Origin: a virus
Length of the DNA: 64,000 nucleotides
Strand: one strand, 5' to 3'
IMG/VR virus record: IMGVR_UViG_3300034102_001514
Coordinates: 1-64,000 of that record
Made by a program: the position numbers and the translations under genes
The notes under the pieces: generated by a model
Told to the model about the DNA's origin: nothing
Databases searched by the model: none
Seen by the model: the letters and a program-made list of their open reading frames with translations, nothing else
Shown here: positions 33,947-44,338 of the stretch, one piece after another
Position numbering within the stretch: position 1 is the first letter of the stretch
How the letters are laid out: the number at the start of each line of letters is the position of its first letter

Positions 33947-35803
33947 TTACGAGTTCGTAACTTCTTCAAACTCTATGTCTTGTGTACCACTATCCGTTTG
34001 GGTTGGTGGATTCTGATACATTCTTGTTGTGACTTTTGACCACGCAGATTCTAATTTTGTTTTATTATCTTTAACTAACTCTATATCTTTACTATCAACT
34101 GCGGATTTCAAATCCCTCATAAGACTTTCCAATTCCTCTTTTTCATCCGATTGAATTTTATCACTCAATTCTTGTATTTGTTTTTCGCTGGAGAATAAAT
34201 AACCATCAGCAGCATTTACAAGTGTAACCGCTTCTTGTCGTTTTAAATCCTCTTCACGATTTGTTTCCGCTTCATCCCTCATACGTTGAATTTCATCCTT
34301 GGATAATCCTGTTGAAGATTCAATTCGGACTCGTTGTTCTTTTTTAGTTCCCAAATCTTTTGCAGAAACACTCAAAATACCATTTGCGTCAATATCAAAC
34401 GTAACCTCAACTTGAGGGACTCCCCTTGGAGCCATTGGAATACCTTCCAAATGAAATCTACCCAATGGTCTATTATCTTTAGCCATAGGTCGTTCACCTT
34501 GTAAAACGTGAACCTCTAAAACTTGTTGATTATCCGATACCGTTGAGAATGTTTGTGATTTCTTTACTGGGATTGTTGTGTTAGCATCAATTATGGAGGT
34601 GAATACACCACCAAGGGTTTCAATACCCAAACTTAATGGAGTCACATCTAAAAGAAGAACATCTTTAACATCACCACCAAGAACACCACCTTGAATAGCA
34701 GCTCCAACAGCAACAACCTCATCTGGATTTACACCCTTACTTGGTTTTTTACCAAAGAACTTTTCAACGGCTTCTTGAACGGCTGGGATACGAGTAGAAC
34801 CACCTACAAGAATAACTTCATCAATATCACTCAATGAAACAGCAGCATCCTTAACGGCTTGTTGACAGGGTTTCATACATCGGTCTACAAGTGATGATGT
34901 TAAACGATTAAAATCCGATTGAGATATATTCGTTTCAAAGTGAATAGGACCGTCTTGACCTACTGAAACATATGGTAGGTTAATTGCAGTTGATGTTGCA
35001 GATGACAATTCAATTTTAGCTTTTTCAGCAGCCTCACGGATTCTCTGCATAGCCATTGCGTCACTTGACAAATCTACACCTTTGGTAGTTTTAATCATAG
35101 ATACAATATGTTCTACAATTATTTCATCAAAGTTATCACCACCAAGTTGAGTATCACCATTTGTAGATAAAACTTCAAATACACCATCACCCAATTCAAG
35201 GATTGATACATCAAAGGTTCCACCACCTAAATCAAATACTGCTATTTTCATATCAGTATCTTTTTTATTTAAACCATACGCAAGTGCTGCAGCGGTTGGT
35301 TCATTAATAATCCGTAATACTTCTAATCCAGCAATCTCACCGGCTTCTTTAGTAGCCTGCCTTTGAGAATCATTGAAATACGCAGGAACTGTGATTACCG
35401 CCTTACGAACACTTTCACCAAGGTATGCTTCTGCAGACTTACGAATGTTTTGAAGAACCATAGCCGAAATTTCTTGTGGAACATAATCTCTTCCATTTGC
35501 ATGAATGATAATAGTATCGTTAGAACCTTTCTTTACTTCGTATCCAACATTAAGATGGTCTTTGTTTAATTCAGAATATCGTTTACCAATAAAACGCTTT
35601 ACTGAATATAAAGTATTTTTAGGATTGGTTACTGCAACTCGTTTAGCGGCTGCTCCAATCTTTACTTCACCCTTATCAAAGGAAATTACCGATGGTGTTG
35701 TTCTGGCTCCTTCACCATTTACAATTACTACGGATTCACCGCCTTCAATTACGGAAATACACGAGTTGGTAGTTCCTAAATCAATTCCAATTATTTTGCT
35801 CAT
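33947..35803 (-). CDS. dnaK: Chaperone DnaK (Hsp70)
   Basis: [39 protein letters not shown] signatures; full length. Confidence 0.97.
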
Positions 35804-38456: not shown

Positions 38457-39728
38457 TTAAAAAGGGTTAGAGTAGTCGTAAGTTTCCATATCAGCATTCA
38501 CATTGAAGATGTCTTCGGTAGATGTGGTCTTGATGAACTTTTGAACGAATTGCTTGATGTAGACTCGTTCAGACTGAGCACCACCGGCTTCTTCAAAGAA
38601 TGGGTAGATGGTAATTTCAGCAGCCTCTTCAAGTGAGAATCCATCATAGAGAAGTGAACCAATCTCCACAGCAGCCCGTGTAGATAGTGAGTTAGTAAGT
38701 TTAGGAGAATCACTTTTGACCTCATTACGAGTCATTGAAGTAATGTCAGCAACACTTTCAATCAACTCAGCCTCAACCGAAGGATACATCATCTGAAGCA
38801 ATTGGGTCTCTTCTTCTTTGGTCAAGGTATCCATCTCAATGATGGTAAATCGGTCAAGGATAGCCCGGTCAAGCATTCGTGTAGCGGTGTATTCGTTACC
38901 AATGTTAGCGGAAGCGATAAAGGACACACCATCAGCAACACGAACCACAGGAGCGTCAGCAGCTTCATCTAAGCGAATGTATCGTTGACCTTGGTCAAGT
39001 ACTGTCATCAAGATGTTCCAAGCCTCTGGATGAGCACGAGTAATCTCATCCAACACAACCACCGTGTTGGGAGTCTGAATCGCCTTGATAAAAGGTGATG
39101 AGTTAAACACCGTACCTTTTTTGGTATCAAATTGAGTATTACCAATCAAGGTAGTTCGTGGGTCTTGAGTAGCACCCAAGTTGATAATAAAGGTGTTGTA
39201 ACCTTCAAGCGAATTAGCAGCCGCCTTAGCAGCCATAGTCTTACCACAACCAGCAGGACCAGTCATCATAATGTTTTTACCACGAATGATATTACGAACC
39301 AAGTATTTCCACTTGAGTGAGTTCATAAACAACATCTTGGGTTTTAGACCCTCAGCCTCATTGTGAATAAAGTTAAGGACATCTTCAGGAACACTTGTTA
39401 TCATAGGTTCAACGATAGGGTTAGAGTTGTAAAGATAAGAGTCAAGACCACCATTTGGTTTATCAAAGTTGGTCACGGGTTCAGCCCCTGCGAGCATCTC
39501 AACTCCAACACGAGTGAATCCTAAAGAACCACTTTTCAATGTTCCGACAACACGAACTTTAAAAGCCCATTTGCCGGGGGCGTTAGCAGCCGCTCGGGCT
39601 CGTTTGTAAAGGGGACTTCCCTTTTCATTTAACTCTGGCAAGTTATAAAACTTACCATCTACATCAGAGAAAAGGAGGATTCCGTTTTTCTCAACAATTG
39701 AACCATAAACAAAGCGTTGGTTTTTCAT
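38457..39728 (-). CDS. MoxR/CbbQ/CobS-like AAA+ ATPase
   Basis: GPAGCGKT Walker A, VVLDEITR Walker B, ASAN sensor, DRAILDRF, STR. Confidence 0.9.
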   Translation of the reverse strand: MKNQRFVYGSIVEKNGILLFSDVDGKFYNLPELNEKGSPLYKRARAAANAPGKWAFKVRVVGTLKSGSLGFTRVGVEMLAGAEPVTNFDKPNGGLDSYLYNSNPIVEPMITSVPEDVLNFIHNEAEGLKPKMLFMNSLKWKYLVRNIIRGKNIMMTGPAGCGKTMAAKAAANSLEGYNTFIINLGATQDPRTTLIGNTQFDTKKGTVFNSSPFIKAIQTPNTVVVLDEITRAHPEAWNILMTVLDQGQRYIRLDEAADAPVVRVADGVSFIASANIGNEYTATRMLDRAILDRFTIIEMDTLTKEEETQLLQMMYPSVEAELIESVADITSMTRNEVKSDSPKLTNSLSTRAAVEIGSLLYDGFSLEEAAEITIYPFFEEAGGAQSERVYIKQFVQKFIKTTSTEDIFNVNADMETYDYSNPF

Positions 39729-39754
39729 AAAAAAGTGATTAATTGATTACTTAA

Positions 39755-39809
39755 CAAAGATACGAAATTATTCGGATTACACAAGCGTCTAATGTTATTA
39801 AATTGTTAA
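39755..39809 (-). promoter_or_regulatory. Sigma-70-type promoter with upstream TTAACA direct-repeat box
   Basis: TTAACAATTTAATAACA-N7-CTTG-N19-TATCTTTG. Confidence 0.7.
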
Positions 39810-41840
39810 ATTTGCCTCAAACTTTGAGTTGAGTGATTTAGCAAGCGGAGTTAATTCGGTTACATTGATAAACTGAGCATCATTACCATACATTGTTTTG
39901 AACGCTCTGGCGTCAGTCCCATAATAACCCTCGGTGATGAAGTAAGAAAGGACATTGATTCCGGCTTGGCGAATTTTCTTAACTTGAGCAGCTGTGTGAT
40001 TGTAAGCATCCTCACCTTCGTAGTAGATGTCGTTGTTTGAGAATGTCGGACATCCATCAGAAAAGTTGATAAAGTAAGCATCACTACCTTTAGCGTATCC
40101 GATAATGTCCTTCATCACAGCCTCAAAACACAAACCTTCGGGCGTGGTTCCGTTTGCGGTGATGTGGTGAAATAAGTTCTGAATTTTAGAGAACTTGTCT
40201 TTACGACTATCATAAGCCACCAAGATGAATGGAACATAATCATTACCATAACCCATAGTGCTTCGGTAAGAAATTACCACATCAATGTTTTGAGTCATTG
40301 AAGCCGCCTTAGCAATAGCGACCGCTGCAACTTGGGTGTTGTTCCATTTATCACCACCCATAGAACCACTCGCGTCAATAGTAATGTGAATTACAGCGGG
40401 CTTGGATTTGTTCACCATTGTTCTTTCAAAGATATCAAAGTTACCAAATCCAATTTCGTGAATCATACGAGCACTCAATTTACCACTCTTCATACGAGGA
40501 GTAATCAAAGAGCGTTCTTCATTACGAGTTTTAAGTTTTTTACCCAAAAGAATACCCAACTGAATACCTCGTTGAATGTTTTCTAAATATTTACTTGTCC
40601 GATACTCAGCATCCGTAAGGATTGGAAACTGATTGGTAGAAACCAACTCTTTGGTAAAGTTACGAATCACATAGGTTTGAGTTCCACCATTGGCTGAACT
40701 ATTCCACTTACGAGTAATGTCTTTACCTGTGACCTCAACCTCAATATCGGCCCGGTCAAGAGCTTCAACCTTGCGCTTTTCACTCTTACCAATTTTCTTT
40801 TTGGCGACCTCACCCTCTTGGAACTTTTTTTGTTTTTCAATAGCCCGTTTGAGTTGTTCAATTTGAGATGGGGTGAGTTGTTCTAATTCACTATCACCAC
40901 CATCAGTCGGTTCACCACTCATATCCATATTAGAAGACATACCACCTTCTGATGATTGGTCATCCGTATCACCACTCATATCAGCGGAACCATTCATTTC
41001 GTGTTCCTTTGGTTCGGACTCATTACTATCACCACCTTGACCTTGTTCTTTAGCCTCAATGTAATTTTTAAAGTAAACCATAAACACAGCACCTGCAACC
41101 TCAAGAGCGTCCCAAGTAGTTTTTAAACGACCAATGTTTTTAAGGTCAAGGATGTTCCAAATCTCACGAAGACCCTTCAAAGCGTCAAGGTCACGATTTG
41201 GGTTGGTGATGTTTACGATTCGGAAAATGTAAGAGTCCCAATTCTCATCACGATACTCGGAAGATTGAAGACCTTTGTCAATAATCTTGGCGTTGAAGTA
41301 TTTATCATACATTGACTCGTAATAACCACGATAGCCCGGCGCGGTACGGAAGATAAAATTATCAATCCGGCGGTCTTCAACCACATTAAGTAGGTCTTTT
41401 AGTTGGGTGTAAATCTCGGATGAAACACTTGATTCAAGTTCAAGACCCATCTTTTCACGAAGATAGTTTACATCAATAGTAGATGGAAGAAAGTTATCAC
41501 GAGTCATCTTACGAAGAGTTTCAAAGTCAGTAAGTTTGATGTGAGAACCCTCGTGAAGCGCTAGACCAACAGTAGGGTCAAATTCGGTGTCATCCATTTT
41601 AGCGGAAATAACTACCTCGGTGCCATCGGTGTAAGAATCAGAACCTCGTTCATCAAAGGTCACCTTAATCGGCATACCAGTTACAATGTTAACGAAGTTG
41701 GATACCGCACGTTTGTAGGATACCAACTTCATAAGGTCAGAAGACTTTCGTTCTACATCGGTGACATAGGTAGTGTTCTCATCAAGGAACAAAGATTTGT
41801 CAAGCCAGAATGAAGAGTAAGAAGATTTTAATTTAGCCAT
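39798..41840 (-). CDS. CobT-like vWA protein with N-terminal HExxH metallopeptidase-like domain
   Basis: LALHEGSH, NVVEDRRID, acidic linker, MIDAS DASGSM, GTTP, FSDG. Confidence 0.85.
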   Translation of the reverse strand: MAKLKSSYSSFWLDKSLFLDENTTYVTDVERKSSDLMKLVSYKRAVSNFVNIVTGMPIKVTFDERGSDSYTDGTEVVISAKMDDTEFDPTVGLALHEGSHIKLTDFETLRKMTRDNFLPSTIDVNYLREKMGLELESSVSSEIYTQLKDLLNVVEDRRIDNFIFRTAPGYRGYYESMYDKYFNAKIIDKGLQSSEYRDENWDSYIFRIVNITNPNRDLDALKGLREIWNILDLKNIGRLKTTWDALEVAGAVFMVYFKNYIEAKEQGQGGDSNESEPKEHEMNGSADMSGDTDDQSSEGGMSSNMDMSGEPTDGGDSELEQLTPSQIEQLKRAIEKQKKFQEGEVAKKKIGKSEKRKVEALDRADIEVEVTGKDITRKWNSSANGGTQTYVIRNFTKELVSTNQFPILTDAEYRTSKYLENIQRGIQLGILLGKKLKTRNEERSLITPRMKSGKLSARMIHEIGFGNFDIFERTMVNKSKPAVIHITIDASGSMGGDKWNNTQVAAVAIAKAASMTQNIDVVISYRSTMGYGNDYVPFILVAYDSRKDKFSKIQNLFHHITANGTTPEGLCFEAVMKDIIGYAKGSDAYFINFSDGCPTFSNNDIYYEGEDAYNHTAAQVKKIRQAGINVLSYFITEGYYGTDARAFKTMYGNDAQFINVTELTPLAKSLNSKFEANLTI

Positions 41841-43249: not shown

Positions 43250-43252
43250 TTG

Positions 43253-43325
43253 AGCGAAAGAGGAGATTCGAACTCCCGACCCTCACCTTGGCAAGGTGAT
43301 GCTCTACCAACTGAGCTACTTTCGC
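43253..43325 (-). tRNA. tRNA-Gly(GCC)
   Basis: Canonical cloverleaf, TCACC-TTGCCAA-GGTGA, U73. Confidence 0.93.
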
Positions 43326-43331
43326 TTATTG

Positions 43332-43403
43332 AGCGGAGAGGTGGTTCTGCCCCACCATCTCTCATCTGGTTGATGAGTGAGTTTCTTTAAACTCCTCCTC
43401 CGC
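43332..43403 (-). ncRNA. Non-canonical tRNA-Gly-like RNA (ACC)
   Basis: Cloverleaf with GCGGAGG/TCTCCGC-T acceptor; T-loop GGCAGAA; D-loop without GG; 6-bp anticodon stem. Confidence 0.75.
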
Positions 43404-43409
43404 ATTATT

Positions 43410-43482
43410 GGGTATGAATGTCCGGTAACACTCGAATTAAATTCACTGCAGTCGGTTTTATTACTGTCTTCAATTCATACCC
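43410..43482 (-). ncRNA. Putative helix-closed small RNA between tRNA-Thr and Gly-like RNA
   Basis: Perfect 10-bp terminal IR GGGTATGAAT/ATTCATACCC; inner GTAATA/TGTTAC and GAATT/AATTC pairings. Confidence 0.5.
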
Positions 43483-43485
43483 TTG

Positions 43486-43558
43486 AGCCTCCAGCCGGAC
43501 TTGAACCAGCGACCTACTGATTACAAATCAGTAGCTCTACCAACTGAGCTATGGAGGC
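43486..43558 (-). tRNA. tRNA-Thr(TGT)
   Basis: Canonical cloverleaf, ACTGA-TTTGTAA-TCAGT. Confidence 0.93.
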
Positions 43559-43619
43559 TTGTGGTGATTGATTAGGGTTCAAACACCAAAACCCAATCGG
43601 CTAGACTCAGCTCTTTATA

Positions 43620-43793
43620 TTATTCAGCGGATGCTTCCACTTCATAAGCAGCATCTTCCAATTCTTGAGAATTTGTAGAATCAAGAACGGCTGTTGTATC
43701 AACAGATGTTCCTTCAACTACTACCTCTTCGGTAGATTCGCTACAGGCAGCAACTGAAGCTGCGATAACGAACATTGCAATCATTTTTCTCAT
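43620..43793 (-). CDS. Small acidic lipoprotein, 57 aa (not in ORF track)
   Basis: MRKMIAMFVIAASVAA-CSESTEEVVVEG...; lipobox VAAC. Confidence 0.75.
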   Translation of the reverse strand: MRKMIAMFVIAASVAACSESTEEVVVEGTSVDTTAVLDSTNSQELEDAAYEVEASAE

Positions 43794-43852
43794 AGTAAAA
43801 CTTTAGATTAAATTATTAAACATAAAAACGACAAAGAACATTTCCTTGTTTG

Positions 43853-43924
43853 AGCGGAAGGTTGGAACTGCCCCAACTCCTCTTATCTGGATGATAAGCG
43901 ACTTTCTTTTAAGTCTTCTTCCGC
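43853..43924 (-). ncRNA. Non-canonical tRNA-Gly-like RNA (TCC)
   Basis: GCGGAAG/CTTCCGC-T acceptor; T-loop GGCAGTT; D-loop AAAAGA; 6-bp anticodon stem; paralog of 43332..43403. Confidence 0.75.
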
Positions 43925-43934
43925 AATTGTTTGA

Positions 43935-43966
43935 CAAATATACGAAATAAATTTCATATTGCCAAA
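43935..43966 (-). promoter_or_regulatory. Bacteroidota sigma-70-type promoter
   Basis: TTTG-N20-TATATTTG directly upstream of the Gly-like RNA. Confidence 0.8.
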
Positions 43967-44251: not shown

Positions 44252-44256
44252 TTTTG

Positions 44257-44333
44257 TTGGAGAGGGGGGACTTGAACCCCTATGTGACCAGTTACCCTTT
44301 CTACAAGGTATAAGCTTGAGGGGATACTCTCCA
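44257..44333 (-). ncRNA. Atypical tRNA-like RNA (TAT anticodon-like loop, no D arm)
   Basis: TGGAGAG/CTCTCCA acceptor, GGTTCAAGTCC T arm, CAAG-CTTATAC-CTTG hairpin close to the 5' acceptor strand. Confidence 0.6.
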
Positions 44334-44338
44334 TTAAG

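Follow-up and report, generated by a model that had tools for sequence, protein, structure and literature searches.

The first 64 kb of the 125,805-bp IMG/VR virus record IMGVR_UViG_3300034102_001514 (this stretch is the window; the full record is referred to as G000) carry two genes for 72-nt RNAs that keep the cloverleaf layout and the glycyl-tRNA synthetase (GlyRS) identity elements of tRNA-Gly and lack nearly all of the conserved tertiary nucleotides of tRNAs. We lean, if only slightly, towards the view that these RNAs are dedicated non-ribosomal glycyl donors for DNA hypermodification of the Mom type. They belong to an RNA family of phages, and Mom-family enzymes are encoded in the same genomes, three of them in G000. 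The two RNAs, here called copies A and B, were delineated from their sequence, their fold and a covariance model of the family (R1).

Copy A, 43332..43403, minus strand: non-canonical tRNA-Gly-like RNA, 72 nt (R1 92.6 bits, E 3e-24); acceptor stem GCGGAGG/UCUCCGC, A8, U73, T loop GGCAGAA, encoded CCA absent; anticodon arm with a 6-bp stem and the loop AACCA ('ACC' with A33).
Copy B, 43853..43924, minus strand: non-canonical tRNA-Gly-like RNA, 72 nt (R1 102 bits, E 5.8e-27); acceptor stem GCGGAAG/CUUCCGC, A8, U73, T loop GGCAGUU, encoded CCA absent; loop AUCCA ('UCC' with A33).

For both copies the cloverleaf is the minimum-free-energy fold (-31.5 and -26.3 kcal/mol; z -4.90 and -4.34). None of 200 shuffled sequences folded as well as either copy, and the plus strands fold slightly worse (z -4.05 and -3.13). 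The 7-bp acceptor stem, the D, anticodon and T arms and a variable region of 4-5 nt are all in place, and all four helices covary. An earlier note on this DNA, made from the letters alone, had described two cloverleaves with the anticodons ACC and TCC, and its structural account holds in full. Both lie on the minus strand and contain G1-C72, C2-G71, G3-C70, U73, C35 and C36; U8, the D-loop GG, U33 and the T-loop TTC are missing from both, with A8, A33 and the T loop GGCAG found instead; the 6-bp anticodon stem with a 5-nt loop appears in the minimum-free-energy fold; and compensatory differences separate the copies in the D, anticodon and T stems alike. Among the conserved tertiary nucleotides U8, G18G19, U33 and T54-Psi55 are absent, and C56 alone is kept. 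The D loops read UAAAGA or AAAAGA, with a single G and no GG, and the anticodon loop reads C-A-A/U-C-C-A-G, which C32-G38 can close to 5 nt. ARAGORN, which called 13 other tRNAs, called neither copy, and the Rfam tRNA model (RF00005) matched neither at its gathering score or at E<=10.

Homologues were gathered by pattern scans built from copies A and B, and R1 was then constructed. The patterns located the family in 17 IMG/VR stretches in strict form and 49 in looser form, in at least 118 metagenome contigs, and in none of 185,579 bacterial and archaeal species represented by one genome each; three of the six loci from the first scan (L002-L004) were chance matches and were dropped. With R1, 19 viral sources yielded 36 matches and 80 metagenome loci yielded 127; on G000 it matched copies A and B and nothing else. 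Two of its 108 distinct matches are canonical tRNA-Gly(GCC), which leaves a family of 106 distinct sequences, mostly with two copies per phage and in a few phages with one or three. Across 11 homologues every one of 242 cells is paired (100%), and 11 of 22 pairs have changed on both sides; this was equalled by none of 500 shuffles, and slid partners pair at 42-55%. Judged from these alignments, the family is real and under selection. The earlier note had read the compensatory differences between the two copies in this sense, and the covariance model and phage search bear it out with strongly covarying homologues.

The gene order tRNA-Ser(UGA), copy B, (tRNA-Thr), copy A, tRNA-Gly(GCC) is kept in relatives. 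Two canonical tRNA genes accompany the copies in the window, the first of which the earlier note had rightly placed next door.

43252..43325, minus strand: canonical tRNA-Gly(GCC) (ARAGORN; Rfam tRNA 71.8 bits), 6 nt downstream of copy A.
43485..43558, minus strand: canonical tRNA-Thr(UGU) (ARAGORN), between copies A and B.

The canonical tRNA-Gly(GCC) is present in 11 of the 15 homologous loci examined, and it is the only non-family sequence touched by R1 (29-33 bits; 29 bits for the neighbour in the window). ARAGORN identifies one family member, in which the D and T loops are normal, as tRNA-Gly(tcc), which places the origin of the family in tRNA-Gly(UCC). As far as these searches reach, the family is phage-only, widespread and derived from tRNA-Gly(UCC). 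It is frequent in metagenomes of both marine and freshwater origin; standard tRNA finders miss it and Rfam does not contain it, so that it is at present unannotated everywhere. PMC10690425 describes a catalogue of 8,495 structured-RNA candidates from IMG/VR, tRNA-like ones included, which may already contain it. A blastn search of the 901-nt region against cultured phages returned only canonical tRNA parts among the best 40 of 790 records, the tRNA-Ser of the window resembling that of Flavobacterium phages, and copy B had no match in 50,697 phage records.

Bacterial GlyRS recognizes its substrate through G1-C72, C2-G71, G3-C70, U73, C35 and C36. The set given in PMC7826273 comprises G1-C72, C2-G71 (printed C2-G70), U73, C35 and C36. 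All 106 family members keep this identity set, C35 and C36 included, with G1C2G3/C70G71C72 and U73 invariant. The fetch patterns fixed CCAG and a 3' CGCT, and independence was checked on 15 distinct members matching no pattern, every one of which keeps GCG/CGC, U73 and C35C36. The elbow carries a replacement set, with A8 in 104 of 106 members and the T loop GGC[A/G]G and D loop A[A/G]AGAA throughout the family. The anticodon loop is variable (AUCCA in 55 members, UUCCA in 29, UACCA in 10, AACCA in 6 and GUCCA in 4), with A or G at position 33 in ~62% of members and A at position 34 in ~15%. Some members (L031:706-778, L092:1146-1219, L100:1051-1122) have the 6-nt loop AUUCCA, or an 8-nt loop if the closing pair opens, a geometry associated in real tRNAs with +1 frameshift suppression. 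A frozen synthetase identity combined with a replaced, equally conserved elbow set is what would be expected of an RNA that is glycylated but not selected for the ribosome, and these positions support that account. In the earlier note's proposal of a GlyRS-charged, non-ribosomal glycyl donor, the invariant identity and the rewired or free decoding and elbow positions have stood up; charging and exclusion from translation are what these positions would predict.

The T stem points the same way. It has G-C at 49-65 in 104 of 106 members and U-A at 51-63 in 105 of 106, whereas the canonical neighbour tRNA-Gly(GCC) has G49-U65, G50-C64 and G51-C63. A T stem of the 'tight' EF-Tu type is described for the proteogenic tRNAGly (P1/P2) of S. 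aureus, unlike the non-proteogenic (NP) isoacceptors (PMC7826273). The departure of the family from the tight EF-Tu type of its neighbour is suggestive of weak EF-Tu use, an argument limited by one relative whose canonical tRNA-Gly likewise has U51-A63. The listed upstream and flank contexts contain no encoded CCA, the 3' flanks beginning CAA or CTA. A class II aminoacyl-tRNA synthetase core (PF00587) was found in none of five phage genomes, and a CCA-adding enzyme (PF01743) in none of the three RNA-bearing genomes searched and in one of five overall, the RNA-less G026; a phage-encoded GlyRS or CCA enzyme was accordingly dropped as a candidate. Since no CCA-adding enzyme or class II core occurs in the RNA-bearing genomes searched, the RNAs would depend on host enzymes, a dependence that fits the strict keeping of the host GlyRS identity set. 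In G026, which lacks Mom as well, the PolyA_pol/CCA-type nucleotidyltransferase domain (G026:C1:172031-172387) lies inside a 1307-aa open frame.

The best candidate for a client is a set of three Mom-family DNA-modifying GNATs of the same genome, not named by the earlier note. That note had pointed to FemABX, GNAT and aminoacyl-transferase genes as possible companions of the RNAs; Fem genes were not found in the genomes searched, and a profile search located these three GNATs of G000 outside the window.

G000 112260-112874, minus strand: Mom-family (PF25680) gene.
G000 119037-119834, minus strand: Mom-family (PF25680) gene.
G000 119815-120576, minus strand: Mom-family (PF25680) gene.

The three score 143.3, 144.8 and 121.9 bits against a PF25680 cut-off of 27.1 and cover positions 15-193, 2-201 and 2-191 of the 202 in the profile, and Mu Mom (8bv8) is the best or sole PDB match for each. 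They sit in a replication module with a family B DNA polymerase (polB), a ribonucleotide reductase and a DnaB-like helicase. When the alignments are read against the residue list of PMC13219725, with the Mu Mom chain numbering calibrated on the HYS motif and the S124A substitution of the crystal, the Mu residues H58, Y59, R111, S124, D149 and Y159 are conserved in all three paralogs. Mu Mom moves glycine from Gly-tRNAGly to N6 of adenine in double-stranded DNA (Silva et al. 2026, PMC13219725). It takes all three E. coli tRNAGly isoacceptors and rejects Gly-tRNAAla, and the authors point to a possible cost of tapping the translation machinery (PMC13219725). In the available portions of PMC13219725, 10.1101/2023.03.24.534169 and PMC7824862, Mom is not linked to phage-encoded tRNAs. 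A Mom homologue is present in 254 cultured phage records, the best being that of Polaribacter phage P12002L at 41% identity. Flanked by the third Mom paralog and by upstream genes of the replication module, G000 110326-111513 (minus strand, beyond the window) encodes a 395-aa protein with a Pfam match to DruA (Druantia protein DruA; 89 bits, E 3e-25).

RNA and Mom also occur together across relatives. A set of 80 IMG/VR loci was collected through the phage DNA polymerase (44-97% identity), and the 50 longer records were searched with R1 and PF25680. Fifteen of these are at least 70% complete: RNA and Mom are both present in 13 and both missing from two (G026 and G039), with no discordant record. 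With G000 and the 252-kb G079, the latter found through the RNA, added to this set of records at least 70% complete, 15 carry both and 2 carry neither, again without a discordant case.

Records with both RNA and Mom: G000, G001, G002, G005, G006, G014, G016, G020, G027, G029, G031, G032, G036, G042, G079.

G026 and G039 were re-searched end to end (best R1 match E 3.2), ARAGORN also being run, and in the polB tree they occupy two distinct positions, each with Mom-bearing relatives as neighbours. Among less complete RNA-bearing records Mom was found in none of five that are 20-63% complete, and in three of 24 further records, including the sole one at least 90% complete. Such fragments are uninformative, because RNA and Mom lie ~70 kb apart and the Mom-less fragments also lack polB: this is true of the five largest RNA-bearing fragments without Mom, polB being Mom's neighbour in complete genomes, and Mom-bearing fragments in turn lack the array.

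We propose that copies A and B are transcribed with the tRNA array, copy B from its own promoter, and that they would be excised like tRNAs and receive their CCA from the host enzyme. Host GlyRS would glycylate them by way of the full identity set, and the rewired elbow (A8, no G18G19, T loop GGC[A/G]G), the T stem and the relaxed anticodon loop would bar them from EF-Tu and the ribosome. The resulting Gly-RNA could form a private pool of activated glycine for the three Mom-family GNATs. By analogy with Mu Mom, these paralogs might move glycine to DNA bases and thereby shield the phage DNA from host nucleases, and a private donor would spare the host Gly-tRNA pool for late protein synthesis. 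In its broader form the proposal is that an orthogonal aminoacyl-donor system operates in large aquatic myophages with Bacteroidota as probable hosts; in this system, phage-only RNAs charged by GlyRS, barred from EF-Tu and the ribosome and marked for Mom paralogs keep glycine insulated from translation; on this wider claim we consider the balance to be even.

Several observations weigh against a supply of glycine for Mom. The three paralogs have K, F or T at the position of R151, a residue that is essential in Mu, and their chemistry or target may therefore differ from that of Mu Mom. Mu Mom is thought by its authors to read mainly the acceptor end (PMC13219725). The distance of ~70 kb leaves the RNA genes without an operon link to Mom, and R1 found no match in five cultured Mom-bearing phages of other lineages (Polaribacter P12002L, Synechococcus DSL-LC03, Aeromonas AsFcp_1, Staphylococcus Alsa_3 and Listeria LMSP-25). 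Mom in general would not need a private tRNA, because none of these five carries the RNA, the blastn search with copy B was empty and Mu Mom takes all isoacceptors. The co-occurrence itself comprises only two independent contrasts, both concordant, a number with which the sign test stays short of significance (p 0.5), and the 15 genomes with both RNA and Mom, many of them closely related, represent about 8 polB lineages. In G026 and G039 ARAGORN finds only 3-4 tRNA genes, none of them for glycine, and the RNA may have been lost there as the tRNA array shrank as a whole. Finally, 29 of the 106 members have the canonical C-U-U-C-C-A-G loop, with which decoding is possible for some.

It is unlikely, in our judgement, that the RNAs are divergent but decoding tRNA-Gly(UCC/ACC), serving the GGA/GGN codons of an AT-rich phage in the manner of mitochondrial tRNAs without a canonical elbow. 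Beyond the members with a canonical loop, such a role would agree with the placement of the RNAs in a tRNA array, with the same strand, promoter type and spacing as real tRNAs, and with the descent from a real tRNA-Gly(UCC) indicated by the member with canonical D and T loops. A UCC species would also complete the U34 pattern of the four-codon boxes, for which the canonical tRNAs of G000 are Thr UGU, Ser UGA and Pro UGG, with only GCC for Gly (ARAGORN). The composition of the loops speaks for a different use: position 33 is A or G in most members, both window copies included, position 34 can be A, and the loop may shrink to 5 nt through C32-G38 or number 6 nt. U8, G18G19 and T54-Psi55 are replaced throughout, the Rfam tRNA model finds no match even at its most permissive setting here, and two or three copies adjoin a canonical tRNA-Gly in arrays with only about 5 other tRNAs. 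Translational demand does not explain carriage of the RNAs either, because glycine codon usage is alike in G000 and two RNA-less relatives (GGT 59-66%, GGA 24-28%).

We give a slim chance to the RNAs being decoys or sponges for a host factor aimed at tRNA-Gly (an anticodon nuclease, a Gly-tRNAGly-acetylating GNAT toxin or an uncharged-tRNA sensor), or throttling GlyRS. Identity elements kept without decoding features would suit such a role, and phage tRNAs are known to counter tRNA-targeting defences. Type II GNAT toxins (AtaT, TacT) acetylate charged tRNA (PMC13219725). A decoy does not predict the link with Mom, however; positions 33 and 34, which an anticodon nuclease could read, vary freely, and D and T loops that are both specific and conserved (AGAGAA, GGC[A/G]G) point to a dedicated partner rather than mimicry of the host elbow. 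The donor signature would be the same if glycine went to another phage or host transferase, such as a Fem-like enzyme, an aminoacyl-lipid synthase, a WbqC-type enzyme for sugar glycylation or a virion protein modifier, which we think very improbable. G000 does encode a WbqC-family protein (143 bits) among sugar-modification genes, and GT25 and methyltransferase genes, named by eye from their translations, lie near the array. The earlier note had envisaged an envelope, lipid or virion acceptor, an idea that fared poorly. FemAB (PF02388) and Acetyltransf_6 (PF13480) occur in none of five genomes (G000, G001, G002, G005 and G006, three of them at least 90% complete), a search that did not extend to MprF-type, L/F-transferase, CDPS or PEARL proteins, and a Fem-type client was rejected. 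WbqC (PF08889) was likewise rejected as a general partner, being present in two of the 16 genomes searched, that is, in two of the 14 RNA-bearing genomes at least 70% complete.

The closest parallel to a private glycyl donor for Mom is found in S. aureus, where NP1-NP3 are non-proteogenic tRNAGly that serve as donors for FmhB, FemA and FemB (PMC7826273). There, as here, extra tRNA-Gly genes keep the GlyRS set (G1-C72, C2-G71, U73, C35, C36), the D and T arms are altered, the T stem is unlike the tight-binding proteogenic type, and the idea is one of a separate Gly-tRNA pool for a GNAT-fold transferase that does not starve translation (PMC7826273). Both systems also have a candidate aminoacyl-tRNA-dependent transferase in the same genome, Mom in our case and not Fem. 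Unlike the staphylococcal RNAs, whose lineage is found only in staphylococci (PMC7826273), those described here are phage-encoded and probably of unrelated lineage. They are also rewired further (A8, A33, T loop GGC[A/G]G, pentaloop), no Fem transferase was found, and the proposed acceptor is DNA and not lipid II. With phage Mu (PMC13219725; 8bv8; PF25680) the shared features are the enzyme family, here in three copies, six of seven proposed active-site residues, Gly-tRNAGly as the established donor in Mu and the location of the genes in a replication module. Mu, with a single Mom, has no tRNA genes of its own and relies on scavenged host isoacceptors, whereas the phages studied here combine two or three Mom paralogs, in which R151 is not conserved, with one to three dedicated tRNA-like genes. 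The resemblance to ordinary phage tRNAs, such as the adjoining tRNA-Gly(GCC), extends to array, strand, size, acceptor-stem type, U73 and the lack of an encoded CCA; it ends with the failure of ARAGORN and RF00005 to recognize the copies, the absence of U8, G18G19, U33 and T54-Psi55, and the mere 29 bits that the neighbour scores on R1.

If this reading is correct, the staphylococcal idea of NP tRNAGly and Fem and the use of host tRNAGly by Mu Mom would be joined in one virus. A non-ribosomal tRNA encoded by a virus, and a tRNA dedicated to nucleic-acid modification, would each be described for the first time, and viruses, not only staphylococci, would have evolved tRNAs with a job outside translation. 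The newly found reliance of Mom on tRNA would be joined by a second, co-evolved component, and it could be understood how a 180-kb phage invests very large amounts of activated glycine in its DNA while late protein synthesis is not starved. Such RNAs would also represent a natural, sequence-defined split of synthetase recognition from EF-Tu and ribosome use, which is relevant to orthogonal tRNA engineering. The use of the RNAs as Mom donors is directly testable with the published Mom assay (PMC13219725).

The earlier note had further assigned the TCC copy its own sigma-70 promoter, a claim that survives in part.

43937..43965, minus strand: promoter-like site TTGGCA-17-TATATT (consensus scan, 10 of 12), directly upstream of copy B.

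The site is there, its hexamers recur at the head of the array (44880-44852), and a promoter-like site is kept before the first copies in homologous loci. The region has 10 such sites and its shuffles 5.1+/-2.2, which makes a single match weak evidence; conservation strengthens the case, because 35 of the 128 distinct contexts upstream of family members contain a site of this kind. The same site, read as TATATTTG, also fits TAnnTTTG, the -7 motif of Bacteroidota promoters. Just upstream of A-type copies (43404-43482 in the window) there is a conserved ACCGG(A/T)TAT with a short pyrimidine-rich run and AAT; the ACCGG(A/T)TAT element is also present in L005, L006, L007, L010, L011, L022, L023 and others. 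Expression was checked in four metatranscriptome runs, from a set of 24 runs that includes 23 of RNA, through their contigs, which lack ends and derive from standard RNA-seq, a method that recovers tRNAs poorly. With this method copy B was uncovered in all four runs, and copy A was represented by two low-depth contigs (about 4) in X1, spanning 43357-43463. Most depth fell on canonical tRNA parts and would come from other organisms, because it carried mismatches. These contigs give no verdict on the expression of copies A and B. Between the copies, a 57-aa open reading frame (ORF) at 43620-43793 (minus strand) encodes a lipoprotein-like signal (MRKMIAMFVIAASVAAC-S) and an acidic tail. It is covered by exact-match contigs over 43599-43822 in three metatranscriptome runs, and their ends at 43822-43839, before the 3' end of copy B at 43853, give a weak hint.

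G000 has 35% G+C, is ~70% complete and carries nearly all of its genes on the minus strand. The 13 tRNA genes called in the window, by ARAGORN and Rfam each, are all on that strand, most of them in a single array at 42.6-44.8 kb. The host is probably a member of the Bacteroidota (Flavobacteriia), an assignment of low to moderate confidence that rests on these sequence clues: the -10 region before copy B fits TAnnTTTG, 23 of 128 upstream contexts carry this motif, the nearest cultured Mom is that of a Polaribacter phage, and the tRNA-Ser resembles those of Flavobacterium phages. Within the array, an 86-nt stretch between tRNA-Asn and tRNA-Asp (44252-44337) was called by neither ARAGORN nor Rfam. 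Adjoining the array at 38457-41840 (minus strand) are genes for an AAA ATPase (423 aa) and a 680-aa protein, which we take, by eye from the translation alone, to be of the vWA type (CobT-like). PHROG searches with 10 large ORFs of the window matched only baseplate wedge, SbcC-like and cytidylyltransferase families, and a strong PHROG match among the window ORFs proved to be DnaK. This phage DnaK/Hsp70 (618 aa; 33947-35803, minus strand) shares 54-60% identity with its counterparts in huge uncultured phages and ~46% with the Lak phage proteins.

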